Source: Microgenomates group bacterium
Lineage (GTDB): Bacteria; Patescibacteriota; Microgenomatia; UBA12405
DNA length: 64,000 nt
NCBI GenBank assembly: GCA_049303675.1
Contig: JBAQNJ010000001.1
Span: forward strand, 747,569-811,568
Direction of reading: 5' to 3'
Below the pieces are notes generated by a model. It searched no databases. It was not told where the DNA came from and saw only the letters and a program-made list of their open reading frames with translations. Positions 11,474-50,716 of the stretch are shown here, in pieces; position 1 is the stretch's first letter, and each line of letters begins with the position of its first letter. Position numbers and translations under genes: made by a program.

Positions 11474-12580
11474 ATGGCCCATATCTTGCTAGTTACTCAC
11501 ACTTACCCACCGGCCATCGATGGCGGCTCACAAGTGATCTATAAAATTGGTCAATATCTAAAATCTCAAGGACATCAAATAATGGTGTTGTCTAGTAACG
11601 CCACCTCGACCGATGATTTCACCCATTCATACAAACCAGTAAACAGTTATTTACCAGTATATACGGCATTCCATCGTCCACTAAAATTATTTTCTAAAGT
11701 TCTTAGCAAAGGTCCTATTTTCAAATTTATTCCTTTTATCAAGTTTCTCGTTTCCTGTATCCAATTTCATCCTGACTATATTATCTCCGGCCCTCTGCCC
11801 ACTACTTCAGTTTTATATGCCAGTTTTATCAAAAAAATAACTGGTGCCCGCCTGATTATCAACGCTTCTTTCCACCACACTGATCCAGAATTTAGCCAAC
11901 CACTACTTATCAAAGCACTCAATTCCTCTGATTTTATTTGGACCCTCACCAATTTTGAGACTAATTATTTTCATCAGCATTTTAATATTCCTCAATCAAA
12001 ACTAATTAATCTTGGCAATGGCGTTGATAAAGGATTTATAAAGACAAAAATAAAAAATAAAAAATCAAATAAAATTATATTTATTGGGTCTATGGCTGCC
12101 CACAAAGGAATTTTTACTCTTATTGACGCTTTTTCTGAGATCTGCCATCTGAGATCTGACTACTCGTTGACTCTCGCTGGTCAAAAAACTCTCTATTCAC
12201 CAATTATCGAAAACAAAATCAATTCACTTCCAGAATCAATCAAGTCACGTATAAAAATAATCTACAATTTTAAGTCTGAAGAACTGACTAAACTGATAGA
12301 CCGATCAACTGTCCTTGTTTCTCCCTCGACTCAAGAGAGTTTTGGACTAGTCCTGCTCGAAGCTATGGCCCGAGGCGTACCGGTAATTGGTGCCGACATT
12401 CCTGCTTCTATTGAACTAATCACCAAATCCCAAGCTGGTCTAATTTTTCAACAAAACAATGCTTTTGACTTAGCCCAAAAAATATCCCAAATTAGATCCA
12501 ACCAAAATGGTATAACTTTTGCATTAAATCACACATGGGATAAAATAGGGGAGTCGTTATGGCAAAAAATATCTTCGTAA
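11474..12580 (+). CDS. glycosyltransferase family 4 (GT-B)
   Basis: C-terminal E..G.VLLEAMA.G.PVI motif. Confidence 0.8.
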   Translation: MAHILLVTHTYPPAIDGGSQVIYKIGQYLKSQGHQIMVLSSNATSTDDFTHSYKPVNSYLPVYTAFHRPLKLFSKVLSKGPIFKFIPFIKFLVSCIQFHPDYIISGPLPTTSVLYASFIKKITGARLIINASFHHTDPEFSQPLLIKALNSSDFIWTLTNFETNYFHQHFNIPQSKLINLGNGVDKGFIKTKIKNKKSNKIIFIGSMAAHKGIFTLIDAFSEICHLRSDYSLTLAGQKTLYSPIIENKINSLPESIKSRIKIIYNFKSEELTKLIDRSTVLVSPSTQESFGLVLLEAMARGVPVIGADIPASIELITKSQAGLIFQQNNAFDLAQKISQIRSNQNGITFALNHTWDKIGESLWQKISS

Positions 12581-13014
12581 TCATCATTGTCATTTCTTGT
12601 CTGCTCCTCTATAAACTTTTCACGAAATCAACTATCACCAACAATGTAAACATAAAAATCAAAAACGAAAATTACACACTTGAAGTCGCTAAATCTTTAT
12701 CTCAAAAAGCCGCTGGACTAATGAATAGAAGTTCACTTTGTCCCCATTGTGGCATGATTTTTGTCAGTAGTTATCCCAGTCCCCAAATCTTCTGGATGAA
12801 AAACACCCTTATCCCCCTCGATATAATTTTCCTAGACTCTCAGGGTAAAATTATCAATATCGAAGCCGCCCCAGCCCAAGCCAAAACCGCCGATGGCAAT
12901 TATCAATATTTCTCCAGTTCCTCACCCGCCCAATATGTCATTGAATTAAACCTAGGAGATAGTCAAAAGTTAAACCTAACCACCGGTGATCAAATCCCCT
13001 TACCCCAATTTTAG
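12559..13014 (+). CDS. DUF192-family protein (COG1430)
   Basis: signal/TM then GLM..CP..GMIF...PLDIIFLD..GKI pattern. Confidence 0.5.
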   Translation: MAKNIFVIIIVISCLLLYKLFTKSTITNNVNIKIKNENYTLEVAKSLSQKAAGLMNRSSLCPHCGMIFVSSYPSPQIFWMKNTLIPLDIIFLDSQGKIINIEAAPAQAKTADGNYQYFSSSSPAQYVIELNLGDSQKLNLTTGDQIPLPQF

Positions 13015-13822
13015 TATCATCATCCCGCATCACAACGGTCGAGAATTTCTCACTACCTGTCTCAAGTCTGTCAACACTGCTATCAAATTAGTTCCCTATT
13101 CTAAATTCGAAATAATCATTATCGACAACGCTTCTACCGATAATAGTTTGCAAAATATTAAAACAAAAATAATTCATAACCAAAAAAATTTTGGGTTCGC
13201 CAAAGCAGTTAATCAGGGTATATTAGCCGCCAAATATAATTATGTTTGTCTTCTCAACAATGATCTTTTGTTGGACAAAAACTGGTTTAAATATATTGTC
13301 AAAAATATATTAGAGTCTCCGAAGTTCACCACTTTTTGCGGCACAGTTTTGAGTAAAGACGGTTCCAAAATAGAATCTCAGGGCTTGCGCTATTTTATGT
13401 CTGGCCGCTGCGAAAACATCAATAACGGCAAACCTTTTGACTGTTCGCTGATCACTGACCACTCATCACTAGTTTGGGGCAGTTCTGCTGCTGCTGTCAT
13501 CTATAAAAAAGCCGATATTGTTAAAGTTGGCCTATTTGACGAATCATTTTTTGCCTATATCGAAGATGTTGACTTATCCTATCGTCTCAACAAAAATAAA
13601 TACAAAGCCTTACTTATTCCATCAGCCATTTGCTATCACCTCGGTGGCGGTACCTCCAGCAAAATGGGTACTTTACGCCAATACTATACTCTCCGCAATT
13701 GGCTAAAACTAATTGTTAAAAATTATTCAATTTTTGAAATAATCAGGCATTTTCCCAGTATATTAATCGAGCGCCTCCGCAATTTGTCCTATTTATTAAA
13801 ATCCTTGCTAAAATTTAATTGA
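12986..13822 (+). CDS. glycosyltransferase family 2
   Basis: FSIIIPHHN...IIIIDNASTD...LLNNDLLLD. Confidence 0.75.
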   Translation: MIKSPYPNFSIIIPHHNGREFLTTCLKSVNTAIKLVPYSKFEIIIIDNASTDNSLQNIKTKIIHNQKNFGFAKAVNQGILAAKYNYVCLLNNDLLLDKNWFKYIVKNILESPKFTTFCGTVLSKDGSKIESQGLRYFMSGRCENINNGKPFDCSLITDHSSLVWGSSAAAVIYKKADIVKVGLFDESFFAYIEDVDLSYRLNKNKYKALLIPSAICYHLGGGTSSKMGTLRQYYTLRNWLKLIVKNYSIFEIIRHFPSILIERLRNLSYLLKSLLKFN

Positions 13823-14041
13823 ATGCTTAGCTCCACTCCTGATATGTACACTCCTGAAGCAGAAAAACTGTATGATTTATATTTTGATGTTGCAGCCCAA
13901 AAATGGATTGCTCATCCCAAGCCAAAATACTCACCTCACAACCGAATTACTCCCCCAATTGTTAATTATCACGGCAAAGAGCTTAGAATTATTCTAGGCG
14001 ACCCCAAAGGTCCAATTATTCAGGAAATAAAAACCAGATGA
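13823..14041 (+). CDS. hypothetical small protein
   Basis: 72-aa ORF exactly filling the gap between two GT genes. Confidence 0.25.
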   Translation: MLSSTPDMYTPEAEKLYDLYFDVAAQKWIAHPKPKYSPHNRITPPIVNYHGKELRIILGDPKGPIIQEIKTR

Positions 14042-15186
14042 TTATCGGCATCGACGTCTCTTCTGTTCCCTATGGCACCGGTGTTAGTAACTACACTACC
14101 AATTTAGTCCGCTCTCTCGTTACCTTAGACAAAACCAATCAATACAAGTTGTTTTTTTCATCGCTTCGTCAGCCATTGCCATTAGAAATAAGCGAATTAT
14201 CAAAATATTCCCACGTCAAAATTTATCACTTTCGTATTCCTCCTACAATTCTCACTTGGCTCTGGAACGATTTGCATCTACTACCTATTGAGTTGTTTAT
14301 CGGCAACTGTGATGTTTTTCACACTTGGGATTGGACTCAACCCCCGACAAAAAGTGCCAAAACTATTACTACTATTCACGACTTTGTCCCGTTTTTATTT
14401 CCCAGTACCCAACACCCTAAAACAATCTCTACTTTCAAAAAAAAATTATCTCTCGCCGTTGCCGAATGCTCTCACTTTATCTGTGTTTCTCACAATACCC
14501 AAACAGATTTAAATCAACTTTTTCCTCAAATACCCAACTCAAAAGTTTCGGTTATATATGAAGCTGCCGACAAAAAGTATGATCAGTTTGTAAAATTATC
14601 TCCACTCCAAAAGCAAATTAAAATCAAAAAAATTCACCACCTCTATGGATTATCAAATTTTATATTGACCCAAGGTACCCGAGAACCACGTAAAAATTTG
14701 GACCGTCTCATTAAAGCGTTTATCATTTTCAAGAAAAACAATCCCCAATCAAAAGTCGAACTAGCTATATCCGGAAAATATGGCTGGGGTAATGATGTTC
14801 AGCCGCCCGCCGATAATTCAGTCAAAATATTGGGTTTTATCCCCGAAAAAGATATCGTCGCTCTCCATGCTAGTGCCCTTTGTCTGGTAATGCCCTCACT
14901 CTACGAAGGATTTGGACTACCACTTATTAAATCAATGAAAGTCGGTACCCCCGTCATCACCAGCAATTTATCATCTCTGGCAGAAATTGCCGGCAATGCT
15001 GCTTTGCTTGTCAATCCTACTAGCACTAGTGAATTATCAGCCGCAATTGAAAAAATAGTTACTTCCCCCAGTTTTCGTCGAACTCTGGCAAATCGTGGCT
15101 ACCAGCAAGCCTCCAAATTTTCTTGGACTACTGCCGCCAAGCAGACCTTAGCAGTTTACAATAAGGTATATGAAAATCGGGATTGA
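14038..15186 (+). CDS. glycosyltransferase family 4
   Basis: VMPSLYEGFGLPLIKSM..G.PVITS motif. Confidence 0.8.
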   Translation: MIIGIDVSSVPYGTGVSNYTTNLVRSLVTLDKTNQYKLFFSSLRQPLPLEISELSKYSHVKIYHFRIPPTILTWLWNDLHLLPIELFIGNCDVFHTWDWTQPPTKSAKTITTIHDFVPFLFPSTQHPKTISTFKKKLSLAVAECSHFICVSHNTQTDLNQLFPQIPNSKVSVIYEAADKKYDQFVKLSPLQKQIKIKKIHHLYGLSNFILTQGTREPRKNLDRLIKAFIIFKKNNPQSKVELAISGKYGWGNDVQPPADNSVKILGFIPEKDIVALHASALCLVMPSLYEGFGLPLIKSMKVGTPVITSNLSSLAEIAGNAALLVNPTSTSELSAAIEKIVTSPSFRRTLANRGYQQASKFSWTTAAKQTLAVYNKVYENRD

Positions 15187-16231
15187 TGGCAACGAGGCCA
15201 ATATTGAAAATCGGGTTGGAGTCGGCCAATATGCCTACAACATCATTTCGCAACTTCACCAACACGATACCACCAACCATTATTATATTTATCTCAAAAG
15301 CCAGCCCCTAACTGACCTCCCTCCAGAAAATGACCACTGGCATTATATTATTTGTGGTCCCAGCCAGCTCTGGACTCGCTTTGCTCTGCCCCTGAAACTA
15401 TTTACCCAACAAATAAAATTAGATTATTTTTTTAGTCCCAGCCATTATTCACCTCTATTTTCACCCTGTCCCACCATTCCTACAATTCATGATCTAGGCT
15501 ATTTGGACTCCCTAGACCAATTTAACAAAAAAGACATCTACCAACTAGTCAACTGGACTCGACAGTCTATTCAAAAAGCCCATCATATTATAGCCGTTTC
15601 CGAATTTACCAAAAATGAAATCCATCGAATCTACCATATACCCCTAACAAAAATTTCTGTCATCCCCAACGGAGTAGGGGATATTCCCCAATTTTCGACA
15701 CTTGCTCAGAAAAAAGTATTAAAAAAATTCAATATCAACTCACCCTATTTTCTGACCCTTGGTACCCTCAAACCCAATAAAAACATCCCTTTCTTATTAT
15801 CTGCCTTTTCCCAGACTAACGAGAAATTACTAGTTATTGCTGGCAAAAAAGGCTGGCTATTCAACGATATTTTTACTATTGTCAAAAAATTAAAACTCCA
15901 AAAGCGGGTTATCTTCACCGACTATATTACCGAAAATGAAAAGTGGATATTACTCAAAAACGCTACTGCCACTGTTCTGCCTAGTACCTACGAAGGTTTT
16001 GGTATCCCTGCCATCGAAAGTCTCTACTCCGGTACCTCAGTCATCGCCAGTGATATTCCTGCTTATCGGGAAACACTCAGTCATGATGTCACCTATATTG
16101 ATCCCCAAAATCAGACAGATCTAATAGCTGCTCTCAACCAAACCAAATCAAAAAGGTTAGTTGTTGTAGAAAAAAAGTATACCTGGACCAATTCAGCCAA
16201 ATTATTAATTACCCTCTTTTCTAAGATATAA
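15170..16231 (+). CDS. glycosyltransferase family 4
   Basis: [24 protein letters not shown] motif. Confidence 0.8.
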
Positions 16232-30400: not shown

Positions 30401-31735
30401 ATGGCCCAAAATAACTCATCCGATCAAACATCCGCCATTGTCTCACTTTGCAAACGACGAGGCATCATTTTCCAAAACTCCGAAATATATGGTGGCATAC
30501 AGGGATTTTATGATTACGGTCCAATCGGTTCCCTGATGAAAAAGAATTGGAAAGACCTATGGATTCGTTCCAATGTTACTTCTCGCCCAGATGTTGTCCT
30601 GATTGACGGCTCAATTATTACTCATCCTCGAGTCTGGGAAGCATCAGGTCATGTCAAAAATTTCGGCGATGAAATGGTCGAGTGTAAGTCTTGCCACCAA
30701 CGTTTCCGACTCGACCTGATTGATAATGCCCCCAAATGTCCTGAGTGCCAGGGCGAGTTTACCGCCCCCAAAAAATTTAACATACTCTTCCATACGGAAA
30801 TAGGCGTTATCGAAGGGGAAAAAACACCTACCTATCTCCGTGGTGAGGCCTGCCAAACGATATATTTAGATTTCAAAAATATTGTCGATTCCTGTCGAGT
30901 CAAAATTCCCTTTGGAATTGCTCAAATTGGTAAAGCATTTAGAAACGAAATTACCCCCAAAAATTTTTTATATCGCACCCGTGAATTCGAACAATGGGAC
31001 GTCCAATATTTTACCCATCCCTCACAAATGGACAAGTGGTATGAATACTGGAAAGATAATCGAATGAGCTGGTACCAAAAATTTTTTAATCATCCAGACT
31101 TTCTCCGTTTTCGCCAGCACGCGTCTGATGAGCTAGCCTTCTATGCCAAAAAAGCCTTTGATATTGAATACCATGCCCCTTGGGGTTGGGCCGAAATGGA
31201 GGGCATTCATTGGCGAGCTGACTATGATTTAACCCAACATTCCCAGTTTAGTGGACAGGACTTATCTTATCGCGATCCTGTCACTAATGAAAAATATTTA
31301 CCTCATATTGTCGAGACTTCAGGTGGTGTCGACCGCTCGTTTTTCTTCATCCTCTTAGATAGCTATACCGAAGAAAAACTTGACAACGGTGATACCCGCA
31401 CAGTTCTAAAAGTTAATCCGTTAATTTCTGCCTACAAAATGGCTATTTTCCCACTAGCAGCCAACAAACCCGAATTAGTCGACAAGGCCCAAGCTCTTTT
31501 TTCAACCCTTTCCCACAAGTATTCTGTTGAATTTGACGATAGTGGAAATATTGGCAAGAAATATCGTCGTCAAGATGAGATTGGCACTCCGTGGTGTCTG
31601 GTGGTCGACTTCCAAACTCTGGAGGATAACACTGTTTCCATTCGTGATCGAGACACCATGCAACAAATAAGGATAAATGCCGATGAAGTTGACAACTGGT
31701 TATCAATACAACTAAACTACTACTATGAAAAATAA
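30401..31735 (+). CDS. glyQS: glycine--tRNA ligase, alpha2 (archaeal/eukaryote-like) type
   Basis: N-terminal RRGIIFQNSEIYGG..GFYDYGPIG, class II motifs. Confidence 0.9.
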   Translation: MAQNNSSDQTSAIVSLCKRRGIIFQNSEIYGGIQGFYDYGPIGSLMKKNWKDLWIRSNVTSRPDVVLIDGSIITHPRVWEASGHVKNFGDEMVECKSCHQRFRLDLIDNAPKCPECQGEFTAPKKFNILFHTEIGVIEGEKTPTYLRGEACQTIYLDFKNIVDSCRVKIPFGIAQIGKAFRNEITPKNFLYRTREFEQWDVQYFTHPSQMDKWYEYWKDNRMSWYQKFFNHPDFLRFRQHASDELAFYAKKAFDIEYHAPWGWAEMEGIHWRADYDLTQHSQFSGQDLSYRDPVTNEKYLPHIVETSGGVDRSFFFILLDSYTEEKLDNGDTRTVLKVNPLISAYKMAIFPLAANKPELVDKAQALFSTLSHKYSVEFDDSGNIGKKYRRQDEIGTPWCLVVDFQTLEDNTVSIRDRDTMQQIRINADEVDNWLSIQLNYYYEK

Positions 31736-35110: not shown

Positions 35111-36376
35111 ATGATATCCAAAACCCCTAAAATATTTTTCCAAAAAATTAAAAATATATTTTGGCATCTGCCCAAAAGTTTTTTTTATAACATTTATTTT
35201 GGTCAACCCTCAAAAAAACTTATCTTGATTGGTGTCACCGGCACCGATGGCAAGACCACCACCGTTAACTTAATTCATCAGACTCTACTTCAATGCGGAA
35301 TCAAGGCCGGTGCTATTTCCACCCTCGGCGCCAAGATCGGCGACAGAAATATCAGTGTAGGCTTACACACTACTTCTCCTGATCCTAAAAAGGTTAATCA
35401 GATATTTCAAGCCATGATCGAAGAGGGGATAACTCATGTTGTTGTCGAAGTTACCGCTCACGCCTTAGACCAATTTAGATTTTTTGGCTGCTACTTTCAG
35501 GTATCTGTTCTCACCAACACTTCCCACGAACATCTTGATGACTTTTATGACTTGAATCGCTATATCGCTACAAAGGCCAAGCTTTTTTCTCAATCAAACA
35601 TAACAATTCTCAACAAAGATGATCCTTCATATAATTCCATCTCTAAGTTATCTTTACAAAATGTAAAGACCTATGGCACCCACCCCAAAAATGATTATTT
35701 AGCCACCAATATCAAGCTAACCAAATCAAAACTAATCTTTAAAATAAACAATCTCCCAGTTAGTACCAATAGTAATTATTTATATCAGGTTCACAACATT
35801 TTGGCGACATTTGGAGTTATTGATTCTCTTGGACTACCGATTGCCGCTCTGATCGAGATTATCAAGGACTTTCCCGCCATGAAGGGTCGCCGTGAAAATA
35901 TCCCCAATGATTATAAAATTAATTGCCTAGTTGATTTCGCTCACACCCCAGCCGCACTCAAGTCAACTCTAGAGACAATCAAGCAAATCACTTCTGGAAA
36001 ATGCATCGTTATTTTTGGCGCCACTGGCGGTCGTGATCCCAGCAAACGCCCCCTAATGGGACAAGTAGTCTCCGAAACAGCCGATATCGCTATTATCACC
36101 GCCGATGATACCCGCAACGAAAAAGTTGAGGATATAAACCGACAAATAATTAGTGGTATTGGCCAACCCAAAAATAAAAAATTTATCTATTACGATATCC
36201 CCAATCGGCAAGATGCCTTCAACCTAGCTGTCAAACTCGCCGCCAAAGGAGATACCATTATCGCCTGTGGTAAAGGCCATGAAACCACTATCCTTCACGG
36301 ACACACCGAATACCCATGGTCAGAAGCCGAAGCGTTTAGGACTGCCCTCCGTTATCGATTTGCCAACAATGCCTAA
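35111..36376 (+). CDS. murE: UDP-N-acetylmuramoyl-tripeptide ligase MurE (short form)
   Basis: GVTGTDGKTTT P-loop, Mur ligase middle and C domains. Confidence 0.75.
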   Translation: MISKTPKIFFQKIKNIFWHLPKSFFYNIYFGQPSKKLILIGVTGTDGKTTTVNLIHQTLLQCGIKAGAISTLGAKIGDRNISVGLHTTSPDPKKVNQIFQAMIEEGITHVVVEVTAHALDQFRFFGCYFQVSVLTNTSHEHLDDFYDLNRYIATKAKLFSQSNITILNKDDPSYNSISKLSLQNVKTYGTHPKNDYLATNIKLTKSKLIFKINNLPVSTNSNYLYQVHNILATFGVIDSLGLPIAALIEIIKDFPAMKGRRENIPNDYKINCLVDFAHTPAALKSTLETIKQITSGKCIVIFGATGGRDPSKRPLMGQVVSETADIAIITADDTRNEKVEDINRQIISGIGQPKNKKFIYYDIPNRQDAFNLAVKLAAKGDTIIACGKGHETTILHGHTEYPWSEAEAFRTALRYRFANNA

Positions 36377-36956
36377 ATTTAATCTTAGTACTAGCGACTC
36401 TATTGAAAAAAACTACGAGAGGGGATTGTTGCCTCAACGTAATAATAAAGATAAATTTTACTTTGATTCCAGCAGTCGCAGTAATCTGGCCGACTTTTCG
36501 CTATCCTCAGAAAACAAAAGAATTATAAACAAAACTGAAAATTTTGCCTATAAATCACTACCACTATCATCATTAAACTTTGACCTTTTTCTTCAAAAAC
36601 AATTATATAAGTGGATAAAAGAATTAGACTGGTCGTTTCCCATTAGTTCAGTAAAAATTATATTCAATAACCATATATTCAACCATGTTGATATATGGTA
36701 TGACAAAGATATTCCCATCGCTTACCTTATATCGTATATCGACAAAAATATTACACACGCAGCTTATTTATTTTACGATTCAAAATATTCTCACGGAAAT
36801 TTACCAATTAGAATTGTATTACAGTTTGTAATAGATTCCCAAAAACAGGATAAAAAATATTGTTATCTAGGACGTTTCTCTAAAGAAATAGGTTTTTATA
36901 AACGCAACATGCCCAATTTTGAATATTTTAAGGACAACCAATGGCTAAAATATTAA
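36369..36956 (+). CDS. Ate1/Bpt C-terminal-domain (ATE_C, GNAT-fold) aminoacyl-tRNA--protein transferase-like protein
   Basis: AAYLFYDSKYSHGNL and YCYLGRFSKEIGFYKRNMPNFEYF match the ATE_C hallmark blocks; ATG at 36369 adopted (ORF-track start overlaps murE). Confidence 0.45.
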   Translation: MPKFNLSTSDSIEKNYERGLLPQRNNKDKFYFDSSSRSNLADFSLSSENKRIINKTENFAYKSLPLSSLNFDLFLQKQLYKWIKELDWSFPISSVKIIFNNHIFNHVDIWYDKDIPIAYLISYIDKNITHAAYLFYDSKYSHGNLPIRIVLQFVIDSQKQDKKYCYLGRFSKEIGFYKRNMPNFEYFKDNQWLKY

Positions 36957-38194
36957 ACATCCACATACTTGGACTCGCCGGTGTCATGACCGCTCCTTTG
37001 GCCCAAGCATTAATTAAATTAGGCCACAAGGTTACTGGTAGTGATCAGCAAAACATTTACCCTCCCATCAGTAATCTGATTTCCAACATACCTTTAAACC
37101 AGCCACTCGGAGCAATTGATTTAGTCATTGTCGGTTCATCATATAAATCATTCAAAATATGCCAAGAGCAGTTTATAGAAATTAAGAAAAAAAATATTCC
37201 ATATATCAGCGCTACTCAATATTTGGCTCAAAATTTAATTAAAAAGGAATCAATATTAGTTGCCGGTTCATACGGCAAAACTACTACTACTGCGCTACTC
37301 GCATGGCTCATGCCATCTGCAAATTATTTTTTTGGGGGAACAGCTATTGATAATTTTCCCTCAATTAACTTGTCAGATTCACAGTGGTCTATAGTCGAAG
37401 CTGATGAATCCATCAATGGCCTAGATCAACAGGCGAAATTTCTTTATTATCCAGTTAAGTATTTGATTCTCACCAGTGCCCAGTGGGAACATAAAGAATC
37501 CTATAAATCCGTTGAAGATAATTTTCAAGCCTACAAAAAACTTATTCAAAATATACCCCCAGACGGACTCCTAATATACAATCCAACTGATGCTGATATC
37601 CAAAAGCTTTTACCCTATTGCAAGGCTAAAACAATTCATTATGAAAAAAAAGTATTTGATACCAAATTAATTGGTCAACATAATCAACAAAATATTTCTG
37701 CTGTTTTTACTTTATCTAAATATCTGAACATTCCATTTGATATTTCCCGATTTTCCGGCATCAGACGACGATTAGAAATTATTTCCGATAAAGATGATAT
37801 TTTAATAATCGATGATTTTGCCCAATCCGCCGACAGAGTCAAGTCTGCCCTAGAAGCCGTCAAATTTTCCTATCCCCACCGTCGGATTGTTATTTATTTT
37901 GAGCCTCACGCCACCTTTCTCCGAAATCAACAGAGCCTCCAACCATTCAAATTCATCACCGATTTCTGTGATGAATTTATCTTAGGGAAAATTATTTTTT
38001 CCCCAGATATCAAACCTCGTGTCACCGCCAAAGATTGGCAAAATATTATTGGCAGCCAGATGAAATACTTACCTCTATATGATGATGTTTTACATTATCT
38101 AAAACAAAGTTTGCACCCTCGGGATATCCTCATCCATTTTAGTTCTGGTGGACTAGATGGACTCAACACTCTCAAAAAAGTTTATAATAATTAA
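36941..38194 (+). CDS. murC: Mur ligase, MurC/Mpl-like
   Basis: HILGLAGVMTAPLAQALIKLGHKVTGSD N-domain typical of MurC/Mpl, GSYGKTTTT P-loop. Confidence 0.65.
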   Translation: MAKILNIHILGLAGVMTAPLAQALIKLGHKVTGSDQQNIYPPISNLISNIPLNQPLGAIDLVIVGSSYKSFKICQEQFIEIKKKNIPYISATQYLAQNLIKKESILVAGSYGKTTTTALLAWLMPSANYFFGGTAIDNFPSINLSDSQWSIVEADESINGLDQQAKFLYYPVKYLILTSAQWEHKESYKSVEDNFQAYKKLIQNIPPDGLLIYNPTDADIQKLLPYCKAKTIHYEKKVFDTKLIGQHNQQNISAVFTLSKYLNIPFDISRFSGIRRRLEIISDKDDILIIDDFAQSADRVKSALEAVKFSYPHRRIVIYFEPHATFLRNQQSLQPFKFITDFCDEFILGKIIFSPDIKPRVTAKDWQNIIGSQMKYLPLYDDVLHYLKQSLHPRDILIHFSSGGLDGLNTLKKVYNN

Positions 38195-38197
38195 CAC

Positions 38198-39232
38198 ATG
38201 ATTCATTTATACCTTGGCCTACTCTTATTTTCATTTCTGACCAATAGTATTTTGGTTGTTCCCTTTATTAATTTACTCTATCGACTAAAATTCCAACGCC
38301 AATCCCAAAACACACTCGATTTTCAAAACAAACACACCACTATATTTGACAAATTTCACAGTCAAAAATCGGGGACTCCAGTTGGCGGGGGATTACTCAT
38401 AATTAGCACGGTCTCAGTTTTATTCCTCCTCTTATTCCCTATACTTCGATTTTCCAATATTTACATCTCCAGCAATTATAAAATTTCCCAAGAAATTACT
38501 ATCATCTTTTTTACTTTTATCAGCTTTGCCGTCCTCGGGTTATATGACGATGTTCTCAAATTCTTCAATTTTAGTAAGTCCGGATTTTTTGGACTGAGAA
38601 TGATGCACAAATTAACTCTTCAGATATTATTATCGTTATTTATTTCACTCTACTTATATATCAACTTGGGGATCAATTTTGTTTATGTCCCCTTTGTCGG
38701 GGCCGTGAGTTTGTCCTGGCTGGCAGTGCCACTCTATACCTTAATTATTGCCACTTTTGCCAACTTCTTTAACATTAGTGATGGCTTAGATGGATTATCC
38801 TGCGGCCTATTGATGATCGCTCTCTTTGCCTTTTGGTTCTTATCCAATACTTCGCTCGACACTCCTATTTCCCTATTTCTCGCCTTGTGGATAGGCGCCT
38901 TAATTGCTTTTCTCTACTTTAATGTCTACCCCGCCAGAATTTGGCTGGGCGATGTTGGCTCACTATCGTTTGGGGCCACCTTTGCCCTAATTGCCATTAT
39001 CTTAGGCAAACTCGTCCCTCTAATAATAGTTGGCTCACCTTTTATTGTCGAAGGATTGAGTAGTGCCCTCCAAATATTTAGTAAAACTTATTTTCACAAA
39101 AAGATATTCCCAGCAGCACCCATCCATCTAACTCTCCAAAAAAAGGGCTGGGAAGAGCCCAAAATAGTTTTCCGAGCCTGGCTGGCAGGGATTATATTAG
39201 CAATTTTTGGCCTATGGTTGGGACTAAGCTAA
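38198..39232 (+). CDS. mraY: phospho-N-acetylmuramoyl-pentapeptide transferase
   Basis: DD..K, NFFNISDGLDGL, polytopic. Confidence 0.9.
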   Translation: MIHLYLGLLLFSFLTNSILVVPFINLLYRLKFQRQSQNTLDFQNKHTTIFDKFHSQKSGTPVGGGLLIISTVSVLFLLLFPILRFSNIYISSNYKISQEITIIFFTFISFAVLGLYDDVLKFFNFSKSGFFGLRMMHKLTLQILLSLFISLYLYINLGINFVYVPFVGAVSLSWLAVPLYTLIIATFANFFNISDGLDGLSCGLLMIALFAFWFLSNTSLDTPISLFLALWIGALIAFLYFNVYPARIWLGDVGSLSFGATFALIAIILGKLVPLIIVGSPFIVEGLSSALQIFSKTYFHKKIFPAAPIHLTLQKKGWEEPKIVFRAWLAGIILAIFGLWLGLS

Positions 39233-39744
39233 ACGACGAGATCACCAAGTATTTGGGCATACCCTATTTTACCAACAAGGGTAAATATCAAAACTCAGGT
39301 GAAAATGTTTTTGTGGGCAAGGGCAGCGCCCGAGAGATTGCTCTAGCCACGATTGATCTCGCCAATCAACAAAATATCAAGTTACTTAATCTCAGCGCCT
39401 CACAAATCCACAATTTTCAGCAGAAAAATCACTTGGGTATCGACTGTTCCGGATTGGTATGCCATCTCTTAGATCTGAATGTAAATGTCCGTCGAACATC
39501 AGCCGATATGCTCACTTCTCCTCCCTTGGCTCAACCTGTAAACCAGCCCCAAACAGGGGATTTGATTCGCCAAAAAGATGGCGGCCACGTATTATTAGTT
39601 TTATCTATCAATAAAAATATCATTACCTATATACATTCATCCCGAGCAACTCATGGAGTTGTGGTGGAGTCAAAAAACATCACTTTAATTCCCCATCAGG
39701 GAATATGGAGAATTACTTCTCCTCAACTAGCTCACGATAAGTAA
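39214..39744 (+). CDS. NlpC/P60 (C40) family cell-wall peptidase
   Basis: catalytic Cys in IDCSGLVCHLL, His in GGHVLLVL, third polar residue downstream. Confidence 0.55.
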   Translation: MVGTKLNDEITKYLGIPYFTNKGKYQNSGENVFVGKGSAREIALATIDLANQQNIKLLNLSASQIHNFQQKNHLGIDCSGLVCHLLDLNVNVRRTSADMLTSPPLAQPVNQPQTGDLIRQKDGGHVLLVLSINKNIITYIHSSRATHGVVVESKNITLIPHQGIWRITSPQLAHDK

Positions 39745-39880
39745 TTGGAGAAAGTGATTGGATCTCAACTTCTGTTCCACATTCACCGCATTCCAGAATA
39801 TCACCCACCACCATTCCCTCAATTGGGACAATTTCCGCATTACAATCGGGACACATTATCTTGACATTCGCATCATCCAT
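39713..39880 (-). CDS. LysW-like CxxC...CxxC zinc-ribbon protein (55 aa), not in ORF track
   Basis: manual translation MDDANVKIMCPDCNAEIVPIEGMVVGDILECGECGTEVEIQSLSPITYRELVEEK; fits LysW/amino-group carrier ribbon pattern CP.C...I......G.I.EC..CG.E.E. Confidence 0.35.
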   Translation of the reverse strand: MDDANVKIMCPDCNAEIVPIEGMVVGDILECGECGTEVEIQSLSPITYRELVEEK

Positions 39881-39912: not shown

Positions 39913-40665
39913 ATGACACCTCTAGAACAATTTGGCCTAGTATTTCTTAAACGTGAAGATAAAAATATAACCGGCTCAGCCAAAGACCGTGCTATTGATC
40001 TTCAGACAAACCAAAAAATGACTCACGCCGTCATTTCCTCAACCGGCAATGCGGCTATTTCCGCCCAATATTTTTGTCACTTAAAAAATATCCAGCTGAC
40101 TACTTTTATTTCACCTAAAACTAGCCTCCAAAAGATAAAACTCATTGATAATCCGATTGTTACCGATAAACCAATATCAGAATCTTTCAAATTTTCCAAA
40201 AAAAATCACTCTTATTTATTACGCCAATCAACTGACCCCATTGCTTTACTGGGCTATCAAAAGATCGGCCAAGAAATTATTGTTCAATGTCCCCTAATAA
40301 CTAGCCTATTTATTGCTGTAGGTAGTGGCACCACTTTATTGGGCATCTCTCAGGCCCTACCAAAATCAGTCAAAATATTTGCAGTTCAACCAGCATCACA
40401 CTGCCCAATAGCTTCTCATTTTGACAAAGATTTCCAACCAGAGTCGATGACTATTACCGACGCCCTCAACACCAAATTATTACCCCTAAAACAAAAGGTT
40501 ATTGATGCTTGTTTTTCGGGAGTTGTTGTCCAAAACAAAGACATTCTCCCCACAATTGATACTTCAGCCGAAGGCAACCTCGCTTATGCTGGTTACCTCA
40601 AAGCCAAAACTAGGCACCAACTCGGTAACTATCCCGTTATAGTTTTGACCGGTACCCAGCGATGA
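39913..40665 (+). CDS. truncated PLP-dependent enzyme, Trp-synthase-beta (PALP) superfamily, threonine-synthase-like
   Basis: K.EDKN.TGSAKDRA (PLP lysine), SSTGNAA, GSGTTLLG glycine loop, VIVLTGTQ C-terminus; only 250 aa. Confidence 0.55.
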   Translation: MTPLEQFGLVFLKREDKNITGSAKDRAIDLQTNQKMTHAVISSTGNAAISAQYFCHLKNIQLTTFISPKTSLQKIKLIDNPIVTDKPISESFKFSKKNHSYLLRQSTDPIALLGYQKIGQEIIVQCPLITSLFIAVGSGTTLLGISQALPKSVKIFAVQPASHCPIASHFDKDFQPESMTITDALNTKLLPLKQKVIDACFSGVVVQNKDILPTIDTSAEGNLAYAGYLKAKTRHQLGNYPVIVLTGTQR

Positions 40666-41768
40666 CCCCACTTGAAAACCACCTCAACTCACTTCCTTAT
40701 ATTTTCTACTTCTTAGTAGTTGATCCATATCTCGACATCAGTTTGCCCGATCTTTCCAATTTTATATCCATCTCACCTCAAAAACTTGGCATTACTCTTG
40801 ACCAAAAAAATTCCGGTCGACTCTTATCCCATCCCCTATGTTTGGATTTCATTAAGAAAAACACCCCCTCAGGATTCGTTCCGGCTATTATTCCCTTCAA
40901 ACCTTCTCCCAAAATTGATTTGATTTGTACCCAAAATAATTGGGTCAAAATAAGCAATCCCAGTTCAACCAACCGCTACTTTGAAGATAAAATAATATTC
41001 GCCGATCTCTTAGATAAACAGGGCATTTCTCACCTTCCTCATCTTATCAGTACTTTTAACCACCAAAACTATCACCAAATTCAACAAAAATTTGGCCAAC
41101 ATCTGGTAATTCAAACCCATTTTGGTTGGGCTGGAAATAGCTCCTACCTTAGCCATGATTTTAACGATATCAATAGCAAAATAGTTGACGGCACTCCCAT
41201 AAAAGCCTCGCCTTTTTTTCAGGGGATTTCCCTAATTAATAACTGTTGCCTAATTGACAATCAACTTATTCAAAGTCCTCCTGGGCTACAGTTCACCGGC
41301 CACCCGCTCTTAACTGACAACCCTCTGGCTACAGTCGGGCGACAATGGCCCTCGCATACTCCTGCCAATATCAACCAACAGCTTTTTGACATCACTACTA
41401 ATTTTTCAAAAATATTATCTAGTCATAAATATAAAGGTTTTTTTGGACTCGATTTTTTTGTCAGCCAGGACAAAGTTTATCTCCTCGAGTGTAATCCCCG
41501 CCTTACCGCCTCATTTGCCTTTTATACTCAAATTGAGCAAAAAAATCAGCTAGATCCATTATTTTATTACCACCTACTTTCCTTTTTGCCTCAAAATTTC
41601 TATTACCCCTCGTTCGATCGTTTTAACAACAACCTAGTTGGCGCCCAGTTGACTAAAAAAAATTCGCAGGGAGCTACCGTCGAGAAATTCGAAGACCTAG
41701 TCGATATCTGCCCAACGGGTGACCCCCATACCATCTCCCCAGAGTATGTTGAAAAACTAACCAAATGA
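40662..41768 (+). CDS. ATP-grasp family ligase (non-Ddl type)
   Basis: GFFGLDFFVSQDKVYLLECNPRLTAS C-terminal ATP-grasp signature. Confidence 0.55.
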   Translation: MTPLENHLNSLPYIFYFLVVDPYLDISLPDLSNFISISPQKLGITLDQKNSGRLLSHPLCLDFIKKNTPSGFVPAIIPFKPSPKIDLICTQNNWVKISNPSSTNRYFEDKIIFADLLDKQGISHLPHLISTFNHQNYHQIQQKFGQHLVIQTHFGWAGNSSYLSHDFNDINSKIVDGTPIKASPFFQGISLINNCCLIDNQLIQSPPGLQFTGHPLLTDNPLATVGRQWPSHTPANINQQLFDITTNFSKILSSHKYKGFFGLDFFVSQDKVYLLECNPRLTASFAFYTQIEQKNQLDPLFYYHLLSFLPQNFYYPSFDRFNNNLVGAQLTKKNSQGATVEKFEDLVDICPTGDPHTISPEYVEKLTK

Positions 41769-46980: not shown

Positions 46981-49734
46981 ATGTTCTTTCCCGAACTCCC
47001 AAACCAACCAAATTTTCCCGAATTAGAAACTGCCGTTCTGGAATGGTGGTATAGCCACGATATTGTCAATCAATATCTCCACAAAAACGACAATTCCACC
47101 AAAACCTTTTCTTTTATCGATGGCCCAATTACTGCCAACGGTAGTATGGGGGTCCACCATGCCCGCGGTCGCACTCTCAAAGACGCCTTCCAAAGATTCA
47201 AAAATGCCCAAGGATTCGCCCAAAGATTTCAAAACGGTTTCGACTGTCAGGGACTCTGGGTCGAAGTCGAGGTCGAAAAAGAAAATGGCTTCAATTCCAA
47301 AAAGGACATTACCAATTTTGGCCTCGACAAATTCACCCAATCCTGTCTCGCCCGTGTTGATAAATTTAGTCATCTCCAAACCGATCAATCCAAGAGACTA
47401 GGGATGTTTATGGATTGGGACAACTCCTATTACACCAATTCCGAAAATAATAATCTATATATTTGGCACTTTCTCAAAACAGTCCACCAAAAAGGCTGGC
47501 TCACCAAAAAAAAGAGTGCCACTACCTGGTGCCCTCGCTGTGAAACTGGATTATCCCAACACGAAGAGGCTGATGGCTACAAAGACATCACCGACACCTC
47601 TGTTTATTTAAAGTTTAAATTAAAAGACAAAACAAACGAATATGTCCTCGCCTGGACTACCACTCCATGGACACTCTCGGCCAATGTCCTCCTCGCCATC
47701 AATACTAAATTTGAATATGTCAGAGCCAAACATGAAAATGAATTTTTGTATTTGGCCAAGCTTTCGGCTGATAAGTTAGGTCTTGCTGATTACGAACCAG
47801 TTGATGCCAATATTCTCTTAAATCAAGAATATGAGTCTCTCTACGATATTCCTGCCCAAAAAAATATTCATCATTATGTCACCAACTGGGAGATGGTCGA
47901 TCCAATTGAGGGCACCGGCGTCGTCCACATTGCCCCAGGCTGTGGTCAAGAAGATTTTGAATTAGGCAAAAAACTCGGTAGCGAAATGATCGCCCCACTC
48001 GATGAGACAGGCCACTTTTTAGATGGTTATGGCGAATTATCAGGCAAATACGCCCATCATGTTGCCAACCAGGTCTTTGATTATTTAACATCTACCGGAT
48101 CATTGTTCAAAACAGAATCCATCAACCACCGTTATCCTCATTGTTGGCGCTGTGGCACCAAGTGTTTATTTAGACTCGAAGATAGTTGGTATATCAGCTC
48201 TGACGAAATTCGTCCCCAAATGAAAGAGGCTGCCGCCAAAGTTAATTGGCATCCCAAATATGTTGGTCGCCGGATGCAAAACTGGCTTGATTCTATGGAA
48301 GATTGGATGATTAGTCGTAAACGTTTTTATGGACTGGCCCTGCCATTTTACGAATGTAGTTGTGGTGAGTTGACCGTTGTCGGTAGCAAAGAAGAATTAA
48401 AATCATTAGCTATCTCCCCTGAGCTTGTCGATGAATTACCCTCACTTCACCGCCCGTGGATAGATAGTATTAAAATCAAATGTCCCCAGTGCAATCATGA
48501 AGTTAATCGGATACCCGATGTTGGTGACTGTTGGCTGGATGCTGGCGTTGTTCCTTTCTCCACTCTCAAATATATTGAAGACAAAAAATACTGGCAAAAA
48601 TGGTTCCCTGCCGATTTAGTCCTCGAAATGATCGAACAGGTCCGTCTTTGGTTTTATTCCATGCTCTTTTTCAGTGTTACTTTTGAGCAAACTTTTCCCT
48701 ACAAAAATGTCGTCGCCCATGCCGAAGTCCGTGATGAAAAAGGTGAGCGGATGAGCAAAACTAAAAAAAATGGTATTCCCTATGATGAAGCAGTGGCCAA
48801 AATGGGCGCCGATGCCATGCGTTGGCTCTATTGTCAGCAAAAACCCCACACCAATGTCAATTTTGGCTACAATATTGCCGACAAGGTCAAACGTGAACAT
48901 TTTTTAATAATTTGGAACTCATATCGCTTCTTCACTCAGCATGCCAACATGGAAAATTGGTCACCAGACAATACTGAAATTACTACACAAAACATATTGG
49001 ATAAATGGCTGTTATCACGACTCAATTCAACCATCAAGTCAGTTACTGTATCCGTCGAAAAATTCCATACTTCAAAAGTCACCCAAGCTGTCGAAGAATT
49101 TGTCAACGATCTATCTACCTGGTATATTCGTCGCAGTCGTGACCGCAAAGATAATTTTGCCATTTTACATCATTGTTTTGATCAACTTGCTAGGGTAACA
49201 GCACCATTTACACCCTATCTTTCGGAATTAATTTATCAAAATTTACTAGGTTGTACTATTGGCCAATCATCAACTTCGATTCATTTACAACCGTGGCCAG
49301 AATCTGATTCTGAATTAATCAATACAGATTTAGAAACACAAATGTCTGTCGTTAGACGCGCCTGTCAAGACATTCACGCCCTACGTCAAAAAGCAGCGTT
49401 AAAAGTTCGTCAACCATTAGCCAGTGCCACTATTACCGACCAGTTGGATCAAAACTTATTAGACATCATCCAAGAAGAGACCAATGTCAAAAAAGTGGTA
49501 ATCGGAACAGAGTTGACACTCGATACCCAATTAACTCCCGACCTAATCGCTGAAGGTGAATACCGCGATTTTGTCCGGTCAATTCAGGTACTGCGCAAAG
49601 AGCTGGGCCTAAAAGTTGATGATAAAATCAAAATCTTTGCTCCCTCATGGCCCAGAGTTTTTGAATCTGAAATATTGACCAAAACTCTAGGAACTTCGAT
49701 AGAAATCAGCGACACACTCCATGTCGAAAAATAA
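46981..49734 (+). CDS. ileS: isoleucine--tRNA ligase
   Basis: WCPRCETGLSQHE, GFDCQGLWVE, MSK(T) motif; HIGH motif degenerate (GVHH). Confidence 0.8.
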   Translation: MFFPELPNQPNFPELETAVLEWWYSHDIVNQYLHKNDNSTKTFSFIDGPITANGSMGVHHARGRTLKDAFQRFKNAQGFAQRFQNGFDCQGLWVEVEVEKENGFNSKKDITNFGLDKFTQSCLARVDKFSHLQTDQSKRLGMFMDWDNSYYTNSENNNLYIWHFLKTVHQKGWLTKKKSATTWCPRCETGLSQHEEADGYKDITDTSVYLKFKLKDKTNEYVLAWTTTPWTLSANVLLAINTKFEYVRAKHENEFLYLAKLSADKLGLADYEPVDANILLNQEYESLYDIPAQKNIHHYVTNWEMVDPIEGTGVVHIAPGCGQEDFELGKKLGSEMIAPLDETGHFLDGYGELSGKYAHHVANQVFDYLTSTGSLFKTESINHRYPHCWRCGTKCLFRLEDSWYISSDEIRPQMKEAAAKVNWHPKYVGRRMQNWLDSMEDWMISRKRFYGLALPFYECSCGELTVVGSKEELKSLAISPELVDELPSLHRPWIDSIKIKCPQCNHEVNRIPDVGDCWLDAGVVPFSTLKYIEDKKYWQKWFPADLVLEMIEQVRLWFYSMLFFSVTFEQTFPYKNVVAHAEVRDEKGERMSKTKKNGIPYDEAVAKMGADAMRWLYCQQKPHTNVNFGYNIADKVKREHFLIIWNSYRFFTQHANMENWSPDNTEITTQNILDKWLLSRLNSTIKSVTVSVEKFHTSKVTQAVEEFVNDLSTWYIRRSRDRKDNFAILHHCFDQLARVTAPFTPYLSELIYQNLLGCTIGQSSTSIHLQPWPESDSELINTDLETQMSVVRRACQDIHALRQKAALKVRQPLASATITDQLDQNLLDIIQEETNVKKVVIGTELTLDTQLTPDLIAEGEYRDFVRSIQVLRKELGLKVDDKIKIFAPSWPRVFESEILTKTLGTSIEISDTLHVEK

Positions 49735-50716
49735 TTGGTTGCCATTGTTTATCAGTTTAGGAATTCTCTTTTCCCTAAACATGCTCATGATTAGCTCCCT
49801 AGCGCCAACTCTGGTTGGTAAACAGTTGTTTTCTTGGGCTATTGGCCTATGTCTTTTTTTTATCGGCCGTCAAATAAACCCTCGCCAAATTGCCTCATCC
49901 AAAACAGTTGTTTTTATTATTTCCTGCCTACTATTATTGTTACCTATCCTTTTAAACAATATTACTCGTGGCTCGCGACGCTGGATAGAACTTGGCTTCG
50001 TCTCCATCCAGCCCTCAGAATTTGTCAAACCATGGCTGATGTTATTTTTAGTTAATACCAAATTTCCCTTGCTGATATTATTGCCCTTTGCTATTACCCT
50101 TGCCCAGCCAGATTTGGGTAGTGGACTAACAATTTTACTGCTCACTGCCCCTCTAATTTTATACAACAGTCGGTTTTTCAAACAAGTAGTGATACTTGGT
50201 CTAATTGCCATTACTCTCTCACCCTTAGTTTGGACTTATGCCTTTCATGATTATCAAAAAGAGAGAATTACCCACTTTCTCAGTCCCAATTCCGATCCTT
50301 TGGGCAAGGGCTACAATGTCATCCAATCCAAAATAGCCATTGGCTCGGGTGGCATTTGGGGCAAAGGGTATAAAAAGGGGACGCAGGGGCAACTATTATT
50401 TTTACCCGAAAAACACACTGATTTCATGTTTGCTTCCACCGCCGAAGAGCTCGGATTAATTGGCATCATTTTTATTCTTGGCTCCTATATCTTACTTATC
50501 AAAACTCTCATTACTCGAGGTTACAGTCTCCAATCCAATCCTCAGCTAAAATTATTTACACTAGGTATAGTTTTTCAAATTTGGTTTACTGTCTTTATCA
50601 ACATTGGTATGAATTTAGGTATTTTACCAGTCACCGGCATCCCCCTACCATTTATTTCCGTTGGCGGCTCCTCCCTCATGGCCCTAATGTTTTCACTAGG
50701 GATTATCTATTCCTAA
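49721..50716 (+). CDS. rodA: SEDS-family protein, RodA-like
   Basis: polytopic, LPVTGIPLPFISVGGSSL. Confidence 0.75.
   Translation: MSKNNWLPLFISLGILFSLNMLMISSLAPTLVGKQLFSWAIGLCLFFIGRQINPRQIASSKTVVFIISCLLLLLPILLNNITRGSRRWIELGFVSIQPSEFVKPWLMLFLVNTKFPLLILLPFAITLAQPDLGSGLTILLLTAPLILYNSRFFKQVVILGLIAITLSPLVWTYAFHDYQKERITHFLSPNSDPLGKGYNVIQSKIAIGSGGIWGKGYKKGTQGQLLFLPEKHTDFMFASTAEELGLIGIIFILGSYILLIKTLITRGYSLQSNPQLKLFTLGIVFQIWFTVFINIGMNLGILPVTGIPLPFISVGGSSLMALMFSLGIIYS

Follow-up and report, generated by a model that had tools for sequence, protein, structure and literature searches.

A homologue of ATE1/Bpt-type aminoacyl-tRNA transferases in the division and cell wall cluster of Microgenomates and its possible role in peptidoglycan precursor synthesis

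Introduction

The MurC-MurD-MurE-MurF series is regarded as the invariant core of bacterial cell wall synthesis and is a drug target. FemX, FemABX and MurM catalyse what is, to our knowledge, the only tRNA-dependent step of wall synthesis, and we know of tRNA-dependent transferases in this process only as add-ons at position 3 of the stem peptide. Here we analyzed a stretch of 64,000 nucleotides (hereafter, the window) from a Microgenomates group bacterium (GenBank assembly GCA_049303675.1, contig JBAQNJ010000001.1, positions 747,569 to 811,568 of the forward strand), in which a gene for a homologue of the ATE1/Bpt-type aminoacyl-tRNA transferases (hereafter, X) is embedded in the division and cell wall (dcw) cluster. 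X belongs to a six-gene module that also comprises an Mpl-type ligase, an NlpC/P60-like peptidase, a LysW-like protein, a pyridoxal phosphate (PLP) enzyme and an ATP-grasp ligase, and in Microgenomates of the Shapirobacteria type the place of MurC and MurD in relatives (in one of the two examined, also of MurI) is taken by this module. X is best explained as a peptide-bond-forming transferase of the ATE1/Bpt lineage that was recruited to cytoplasmic peptidoglycan precursor synthesis.

Several described systems have parts in common with this locus. ATE1 and Bpt attach an amino acid to the alpha-amine of an acidic residue at the N-terminus (PMC9351520). The Fem enzymes would share superfamily and chemistry with X, as well as an equivalent catalytic Lys, but they have two domains, with or without a coiled coil, compared with the single GNAT domain of X, and they decorate position 3 on top of the Mur pathway, whereas the gene set of X alternates with a MurC-type ligase and MurD. 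Mpl is a salvage accessory that works alongside MurC, whereas the ligase adjoining X sits in the dcw cluster, in the slot of MurC, and the peptide that it receives would, unlike in Mpl recycling, be made de novo with tRNA. PacB, VlmA and Sbb17/Sba18 provide an analogy as GNAT-fold enzymes that use aminoacyl-tRNA to aminoacylate an amine on a small molecule or on a carrier; however, they belong to other subfamilies and to antibiotic pathways, and none is linked to Mur ligases or primary wall synthesis. The accessory genes resemble parts of the LysW carrier systems and of Aslfm/Racfm of E. faecium (an ATP-grasp D-Asp ligase and a racemase). Our literature search returned nothing on the X family, on an Mpl-type exchange in bacteria of the candidate phyla radiation (CPR) or on a tRNA-dependent main-chain step, and nothing relevant on CPR peptidoglycan in combination with tRNA transferases, Mpl or murD.

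Results

Identification of X and its family

X lies on the forward strand at positions 36369-36956 and encodes a basic protein of 195 aa (pI = 9.2). Both motifs quoted in a preliminary description of this sequence were found in it, AAYLFYDSKYSHGNL at residues 131-145 and YCYLGRFSKEIGFYKRNMPNFEYF at residues 164-187. The translational coupling that the same description had noted is also present on both sides, with an overlap of 8 nt between the ATG of X and the murE stop (36374-36376) and one of 16 nt between the stop of X and the ATG (36941) of the next ligase gene. X is a real gene under strong constraint. In an alignment of 42 members about 50 positions are invariant, and the N-termini of the orthologues fit the ATG at 36369, not an upstream GTG. 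An identical protein is deposited at NCBI (WAV41_04350, from a 998-kb contig of a Microgenomates group bacterium), and homologues fall into 473 further clusters; the 120 listed have E-values of 1e-125 to 1e-68 and 55-62% identity, and come mostly from Shapirobacteria-type CPR bacteria. The family is narrow, since just 229 clusters at E ≤ 1e-3 were retrieved with its profile among 1.84 billion cluster representatives. For the collection scan for remote relatives a 13-sequence subset was used, the broad 75-sequence alignment being too diverse. The protein is annotated as 'hypothetical protein' in NCBI, and many members are labelled 'arginyl-tRNA--protein arginylyltransferase' in JGI.

X resembles ATE1 and Bpt in fold and active site

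At the sequence level, the similarity of X to ATE_C appears real but weak. The preliminary description had pointed to the Pfam families ATE_C and FemAB; ATE_C (PF04377) matched X below threshold (E 0.0044, 18.1 bits, gathering score 25), and FemAB (PF02388) gave no match, nor does X have the two-domain Fem architecture. The NCBIfam model for Bpt-type arginyltransferases, NF002346, likewise matched below its cut-off of 170 (E 7e-6, 25.6 bits), over residues 35-192 of X and model positions 80-242 of 247. Among 83 members of the family, which span 17-62% identity, 76 matched ATE_C at E ≤ 0.01 (best 3e-10), 33 matched Acetyltransf_6 and 10 matched Acetyltransf_1. Sequence-only searches of the PDB returned nothing relevant for a close-family profile, and for broader profiles ATE1 at E-values of 0.06-0.3, ranked behind generic GNAT proteins; the best match of the broad profile was the GNAT acetyltransferase 3d8p (E 3e-4).

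It is the fold comparison alone that is decisive for the affiliation of X. All 50 Foldseek matches listed for its AlphaFold2 model (pLDDT 90.4) against the PDB are aminoacyl-tRNA-dependent transferases, of which the first 30 are ATE1; the MprF-type synthases, FemX, L/F-transferase and Sbb17/Sba18 are also among them. The model thus predicts an ATE1-like GNAT fold for the catalytic domain, and the assignment of X to the ATE/Bpt type within the GNAT superfamily of aminoacyl-tRNA transferases, proposed from the letters of the sequence, agrees with both the HMM (hidden Markov model) and the structural matches.

Six residues are invariant in all 83 sequences, namely G19, R37, G168, Y177, K178 and W192. 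The pair Y177-K178, which is kept down to 17% identity, aligns with Y303-K304 of yeast Ate1, the E-value of that alignment being just 0.13. In klAte1 the Tyr-Lys pair (Y303, K304) is essential, and K304 matches FemX K305, the residue that stabilises the tetrahedral intermediate, with Phe304 of FemX at the Tyr position (PMC9351520). Ate1 binds the Arg side chain with four residues, whose counterparts in X, by the same weak alignment, are I/A131, L/I149, F153 and C165. The donor side-chain pocket would thus be hydrophobic, as in Bpt, and the donor is therefore, at low confidence, unlikely to be Arg.

X has one Cys in the whole protein, and members of its family have 0-3 in their first 70 residues. 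The reported lack of ATE_N is accordingly correct for the Cys-rich part, whereas the second half of an ATE_N-like sequence seems to be retained in our reading of the motifs (Y16..G19..FY31..S35xR37..F43xLSSENRRI); the alignments of the NCBIfam arginyltransferase models to X begin at profile position 64-80. The conserved SSENRRILRK helix is a candidate tRNA-binding element. X is thus like Bpt and ATE1 in its best matches, its GNAT-type ATE_C core and its Tyr-Lys pair, and unlike them in the absent Cys-rich module, the scores under the cut-off, a genomic context of Mur ligases rather than clpS or aat, and a predicted acceptor that would be a small wall peptide, not a protein.

X is linked to Mur ligases across CPR lineages

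X co-occurs with its five partner genes in ~107 Microgenomates loci from at least four lineages. Neighborhoods were counted in 80 GTDB species-representative loci of one clade, with ~20 kb read around each gene, and their gene order is essentially invariant: glyS, lipoprotein, rsmH, ftsL, ftsI, murE, X, ligase, (murA), mraY, NlpC/P60-like, LysW-like (minus strand), PLP enzyme, ATP-grasp, ftsW, murG, ftsA and ftsZ. Where the sequence was long enough, murE was directly 5' of X in 69 of 75 loci and the ligase directly 3' in 68 of 73. Enough downstream sequence was available for 55 loci; all of these have mraY and the NlpC-like gene (55/55 each), 54 have the LysW-like gene, 54 the PLP enzyme gene and 53 the ATP-grasp gene. 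In most relatives murA sits between the ligase and mraY (e.g., locus L001, 12009-13337); it was not found at the corresponding junction of the window (38194/38198) or among the window open reading frames (ORFs) scanned.

The linkage extends to remote relatives. A second CPR clade, whose X is ~30% identical to the window protein, has the same arrangement, with murB, murA, ddl and a murF without N-terminal domain in addition. A third lineage has a rearranged locus (murB on the minus strand, ATP-grasp, NlpC-like, mraY, X, ligase, NUDIX, LysW-like on the minus strand, PLP enzyme), in which X still adjoins the ligase and no murE is present. In the fourth lineage, which is very remote, X is overlapped at its start by a murE of the DNPR type. 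A natural fusion of X and the ligase (P0122; 645 aa, with a Pro/Ser-rich linker) was found on three assemblies of one lineage. The place of X in peptidoglycan precursor synthesis rather than in the N-end rule, as first suggested, is therefore borne out by this invariant synteny, by the adjacency to Mur ligases in deeply diverged relatives and by the fusion.

A different fusion protein of 809 aa (P0173; locus L174, 8001-10430) joins an X homologue to a PPDK_N-type ATP-grasp domain and a PEP-utilizers swivelling domain, and a MurE-like ligase is encoded 4.4 kb upstream of it. This Microgenomates-type dcw cluster also appears in many records (L007, L009, L011 and many others) under the title 'uncultured Gammaproteobacteria bacterium' (TPA) and in one under 'Candidatus Methanoperedens', all apparently mislabelled.

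Verrucomicrobiota, which are not part of the CPR, have a highly conserved X homologue of 267 aa (>2,800 proteins; the 120 listed are 82-94% identical). It stands directly behind an alanine racemase gene in 22 of 45 loci and one gene further in 2 more, and it overlaps that gene (L110-L171, e.g., L150, 6823-8804). A PurD-like ATP-grasp gene is just upstream in 13 verrucomicrobial loci; no homology between its product and the CPR ATP-grasp protein was detected (E 0.5). This second, non-CPR context again connects the X family with D-amino-acid metabolism.

The module alternates with a MurC-type ligase and MurD

To obtain a control set, we searched with MurF of the second clade and compared four loci with 56-58% identical MurF. 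One of them (L177) has all six module genes, X included, and another (L178) has X, the ligase and the NlpC-like gene, after which unrelated genes interrupt; neither has MurD or MurI. The other two, L176 and L179, lack X. The order in L176 is glyS, mraZ, rsmH, ftsL, ftsI, murE, ligase, murB, murA, murF, mraY, MurD and ftsW, and that in L179 is the same except that MurI and a MurD::FtsW fusion follow mraY (12291-15544, the fusion being called as one protein of 815 aa). For neither X nor the NlpC-like, LysW-like, PLP and ATP-grasp genes was a homologue detected in L176 and L179, and a MurC-type ligase fills the slot that the Mpl-type ligase holds in X-carrying clusters. The two loci come from close relatives; their MurF is 56% identical to that of an X-carrying cluster. 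Conversely, among 105 X-carrying CPR loci that include the ligase, no region was best matched by E. coli MurD or MurC.

Because the module alternates with a MurC-type ligase and MurD, and once with MurI, in clusters that are otherwise collinear, it touches the addition of residue 1 (L-Ala) and the supply and addition of residue 2 (D-Glu). The alternation thus points to the first two positions of the stem peptide, not to a side branch.

Two other features of the clusters were considered as clues and rejected in light of the X-lacking loci. The MurE (~405-465 aa) and MurF (~400-415 aa) of this CPR group have no N-terminal UDP-binding Mur_ligase domain, whether or not X is present (e.g., window 35111-36376; L097, 12455-13666; L176, 5173-6435 and 10001-11248), and that domain is kept by the MurC/Mpl-family ligase only. 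A MurE without the domain was therefore not taken as a sign of chemistry off the nucleotide. The preliminary description had placed glyQS just upstream of the cluster; a glycyl-tRNA synthetase (GlyRS) gene is indeed located at 30401-31735, but it is also upstream of the X-lacking L176, so its position is not specific to X-carrying clusters, says nothing on the amino-acid donor and was discarded as a clue to Gly-tRNA.

The ligase adjoining X resembles Mpl in pairwise scores and motifs

The ligases adjoining X in six loci scored 144, 160, 187, 148, 198 and 177 bits against E. coli Mpl and, in the same order, 77, 90, 108, 100, 110 and 115 bits against E. coli MurC, about twice as high against Mpl. 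The ligases of the X-lacking loci scored about equally against both (L176: 185 bits for Mpl and 180 for MurC by blastp; L179: 175 and 176 by tblastn). In a joint alignment, the X-adjoining ligases and E. coli Mpl have in common the motif GSD..YPPxS, a 7-residue loop after E(A/G)DE and SSGG, whereas the ligases of X-lacking clusters, like E. coli MurC, lack the YPPxS motif, the loop and SSGG. The Mpl-specific loop corresponds to the (S/T)AFFDKRSK segment, which is absent from MurC-F (PMC3060825). In the window ligase the loop reads INGLDQQAKF, with the same length as the Mpl loop and conserved D and KF, and among PDB entries Psychrobacter Mpl (3HN7) matches this ligase best. Between the X-carrying L097 and the X-lacking L176, the ligases share 28% identity, compared with 56% for the MurF proteins, which argues that the ligase was exchanged and has not merely diverged. 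X was first described as lying between murE and a MurC/Mpl-like ligase; both genes do adjoin it, and the downstream one appears to be Mpl-type rather than MurC.

Neighboring genes of X in the window

The genes from murE to that of the ATP-grasp ligase are on the forward strand unless stated otherwise. The MurE-type ligase upstream of X (35111-36376, 421 aa) consists of the middle and C-terminal domains only, and has DDTR (residues ~331-337, window ~36100-36130) in place of DNPR of E. coli. DNPR is typical of MurE enzymes that add meso-diaminopimelate, and T. maritima MurE has DDPR; as the window enzyme has neither, the identity of the position-3 residue is uncertain. The Mpl-type UDP-MurNAc:peptide ligase (36941-38194, 417 aa) keeps its N-terminal UDP-binding domain and has NIYPPIS, the loop after EADE and SSGG. 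MraY (38198-39232) marks the point after which X-lacking relatives carry MurD, and one of them also MurI; in the window, the stretch from mraY to ftsW is occupied by the genes of the PLP enzyme and the ATP-grasp ligase, among others of the module.

The first gene of that stretch (39214-39744, 176 aa) encodes a cytoplasmic NlpC/P60-like cysteine peptidase with invariant DCSG and His, and its family profile had no sequence match in the PDB. The NlpC/P60 family includes gamma-D-Glu-diamino-acid endopeptidases. The LysW-like zinc-ribbon protein (39713-39880, minus strand) has 55 aa, which is below a 60-aa ORF filter. It scored 28.1 bits with the LysW model TIGR01206, under the cut-off of 53.2, and ends in a conserved (L/I)(I/V)EEK rather than in an EDWGE-type C-terminus; the EEK end is conserved in 65 of 68 related loci from two CPR clades, which suggests a functional tail, possibly that of a carrier protein. 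The PLP enzyme (39913-40665, 250 aa) is of fold-type II and related to threonine synthases, dehydratases and racemases. Whether it should be called a racemase is undecided, as threonine synthases (87 bits) outscored a probable serine racemase (69 bits) and an aspartate racemase (63 bits). The ATP-grasp ligase gene follows at 40662-41768 (368 aa). Compared with the LysW systems, the C-terminus, an ATP-grasp protein that is not specifically LysX-like and the absence of other LysW-pathway enzymes set this gene set apart, and the PLP enzyme, of fold-type II and closest to threonine synthase, differs from the counterparts in both the LysW and Aslfm/Racfm systems.

Directly after ftsZ, genes for isoleucyl-tRNA synthetase (IleRS; 46981-49734) and a second FtsW/RodA-family protein (49721-50716) overlap at their ends. 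With GlyRS upstream and IleRS downstream, the division and wall cluster is flanked by two aminoacyl-tRNA synthetase genes. Two proteins encoded on the minus strand (2697-3611 and 10518-11450) have only an LPG_synthase_TM (MprF flippase-like) domain, without an aminoacyl-phosphatidylglycerol synthase domain, and both are within a ~30-kb region rich in glycosyltransferases (~400-29800).

Discussion

X is probably a tRNA-dependent transferase that acts in the synthesis of the peptidoglycan peptide. A more specific reading, to which we assign a probability of roughly 45%, is that X and its module bypass MurC and MurD, with X joining residues 1 and 2 and the Mpl-type ligase loading the peptide on UDP-MurNAc. 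The analysis establishes its fold, the conserved catalytic Tyr-Lys pair, the gene co-occurrence, the fusion and the fact that the module alternates with a MurC-type ligase and MurD; that aminoacyl-tRNA is the donor, which acceptor is used, in what order the steps proceed and what the four accessory genes do are what we infer in the following scheme. The PLP enzyme, as a substitute for MurI, would make the position-2 residue, D-Glu or an analogue, which the ATP-grasp ligase may hold on the EEK C-terminus of the LysW-like protein until the NlpC/P60-like peptidase releases the residue or its product. With aminoacyl-tRNA as its donor, X would join the L-amino acid of position 1 to the D-Glu-like residue at its free alpha-amine, as Bpt and ATE1 do on N-terminal Asp or Glu, and the Mpl-type ligase would put the preformed peptide on UDP-MurNAc. 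MurE, and MurF where present, would proceed as usual. The fitting of the four accessory genes into this scheme is speculative. That Mpl loads preformed peptides on UDP-MurNAc has been reported, including L-Ala-D-Glu at a low rate (PMC3060825).

Several observations weigh against this bypass. With X and the ATP-grasp ligase the module has two peptide-bond formers where one would do for a dipeptide, which leaves the accessory roles as guesses, and the ATP-grasp protein showed no specific affinity to LysX or RimK (its best PDB matches, with weak E-values, were PurK, biotin carboxylase and CPS). The Arg with which Ate1 recognises the acidic residue (R80 in klAte1), which we take to sit in the GFRRSG motif, has no aligned counterpart in X; R24 of X is invariant in the close family but present in 45 of 83 sequences of the broad one, R37 being the invariant Arg. 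The window ligase scored higher with the NCBIfam murC model (177 bits) than with the mpl model TIGR01081 (134 bits, cut-off 389), so the label 'Mpl-type' rests on pairwise scores and discrete motifs, and the C-domain residues proposed to bind the peptide are changed in the X-adjoining ligase (HH to QS, and RSNT to HATF). Psychrobacter Mpl turns over L-Ala-D-Glu at 1.4 min-1 compared with 260 min-1 for the tripeptide, ~200-fold less (PMC3060825). The window ORFs scanned include no murC, murD or murI, but the 64-kb window is ~6% of the genome, and with ~20 kb read per gene these genes may lie elsewhere in X-carrying genomes. The X-lacking control consists of two clusters, possibly from one lineage. 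Lastly, the verrucomicrobial homologues have an alanine racemase as neighbor instead of Mur ligases, and a normal Mur pathway is presumably present alongside them.

The preliminary description had favored a Fem-like role. In the form considered here, X would use aminoacyl-tRNA to place an amino acid on the side-chain amine of the diamino acid at position 3 of UDP-MurNAc-tri/pentapeptide or of lipid II, giving a cross-bridge. In a variant of this model, X extends a D-Asp or D-Glu branch set by the ATP-grasp ligase, as with Aslfm/Racfm of E. faecium; such a D-isoAsp or D-isoGlu branch would provide the acidic N-terminal acceptor favored by ATE and Bpt. Known cross-bridge makers are tRNA-dependent GNAT-fold ligases and ATP-grasp D-amino-acid ligases (PMC2922099), and X is coupled directly behind murE, an adjacency that recurs in four lineages, one of them without a following Mpl-type ligase. 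However, nothing specific favors a modification of the finished stem peptide or lipid II, and the model leaves the alternation with a MurC-type ligase and MurD and the swap to an Mpl-type ligase unexplained. The fusion joins X to the Mpl-type ligase and not to MurE, in the rearranged locus X likewise remains with the ligase rather than with MurE, and the absent FemAB match and single GNAT domain do not fit a Fem enzyme. We consider the Fem-like model, with its variant, unlikely. X might instead aminoacylate the LysW-like protein, or an amino acid held on its EEK end, yielding an unusual wall amino acid or peptide that is not necessarily at positions 1 and 2. This overlaps with the bypass scheme, and the near-constant company of the LysW-like gene, its conserved EEK end and the fact that protein termini are the normal targets of ATE and Bpt speak for it; the PLP enzyme, ATP-grasp ligase and peptidase are also reminiscent of the LysW and CysO-CysM carrier systems. 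However, the zinc-ribbon protein matches LysW weakly (28 bits vs. a cut-off of 53), the ATP-grasp protein is not specifically LysX- or RimK-like, and X is fused or adjacent to a Mur-type ligase rather than to the LysW-like gene on the opposite strand, which together make this an improbable account.

Two further explanations leave out either the wall or the tRNA, and both are very improbable in our view. As an ordinary Bpt of the N-degron pathway, X would leucylate or arginylate N-terminal Asp or Glu for ClpS/ClpAP, its position in the dcw cluster being incidental; the best HMM and fold matches and the JGI label agree with this. It is the context that speaks against it: the linkage to Mur ligases is kept among relatives of 17-38% identity, survives rearrangement and includes a fusion, X alternates with a MurC-type ligase and MurD, and no clpS or clpA was found among the window ORFs scanned, in addition to a score far under the family cut-off (25.6 vs. 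170 bits) and the missing Cys-rich ATE_N. As a GNAT acyl-CoA transferase, X would N-acylate a wall precursor from acetyl-CoA or another acyl-CoA, in line with the members that match Acetyltransf_6 and Acetyltransf_1 and with 3d8p as the best sequence-only match. This is disfavored because of the fold matches; moreover, the invariant Tyr-Lys pair is typical of aminoacyl-tRNA transferases, and in our reading of the alignment the clade of the window protein has lost the Gly of the CoA-binding loop between beta4 and alpha3 of GNAT proteins (NLPIR for sLGxx).

With the bypass of MurC and MurD as our preferred reading, we propose tentatively, and with somewhat less confidence than for the bypass by X itself, that some CPR bacteria (Shapirobacteria and related Microgenomates) build stem residues 1 and 2 off the nucleotide with the six-gene module, which would replace the nearly universal MurC, MurI and MurD. 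If true, tRNA would here, for the first time, provide a residue of the main chain of the stem peptide, and the core MurC-MurD-MurE-MurF pathway would have a new, tRNA-dependent alternative. An Mpl-type ligase with X, as opposed to a MurC-type ligase with MurD, would serve as a genomic marker, and the module provides a defined set of six genes for heterologous reconstitution from unculturable organisms. Even if the Fem-like reading alone holds, X would represent a new, unannotated family of wall-modifying enzymes; at a minimum, X forms a new branch of the ATE/Bpt lineage that is defined by its context and has a role related to the wall. Under the bypass reading, the ATE/Bpt family would gain a non-protein substrate and a role in primary metabolism, and translation and wall synthesis would be coupled in organisms with minimal genomes.

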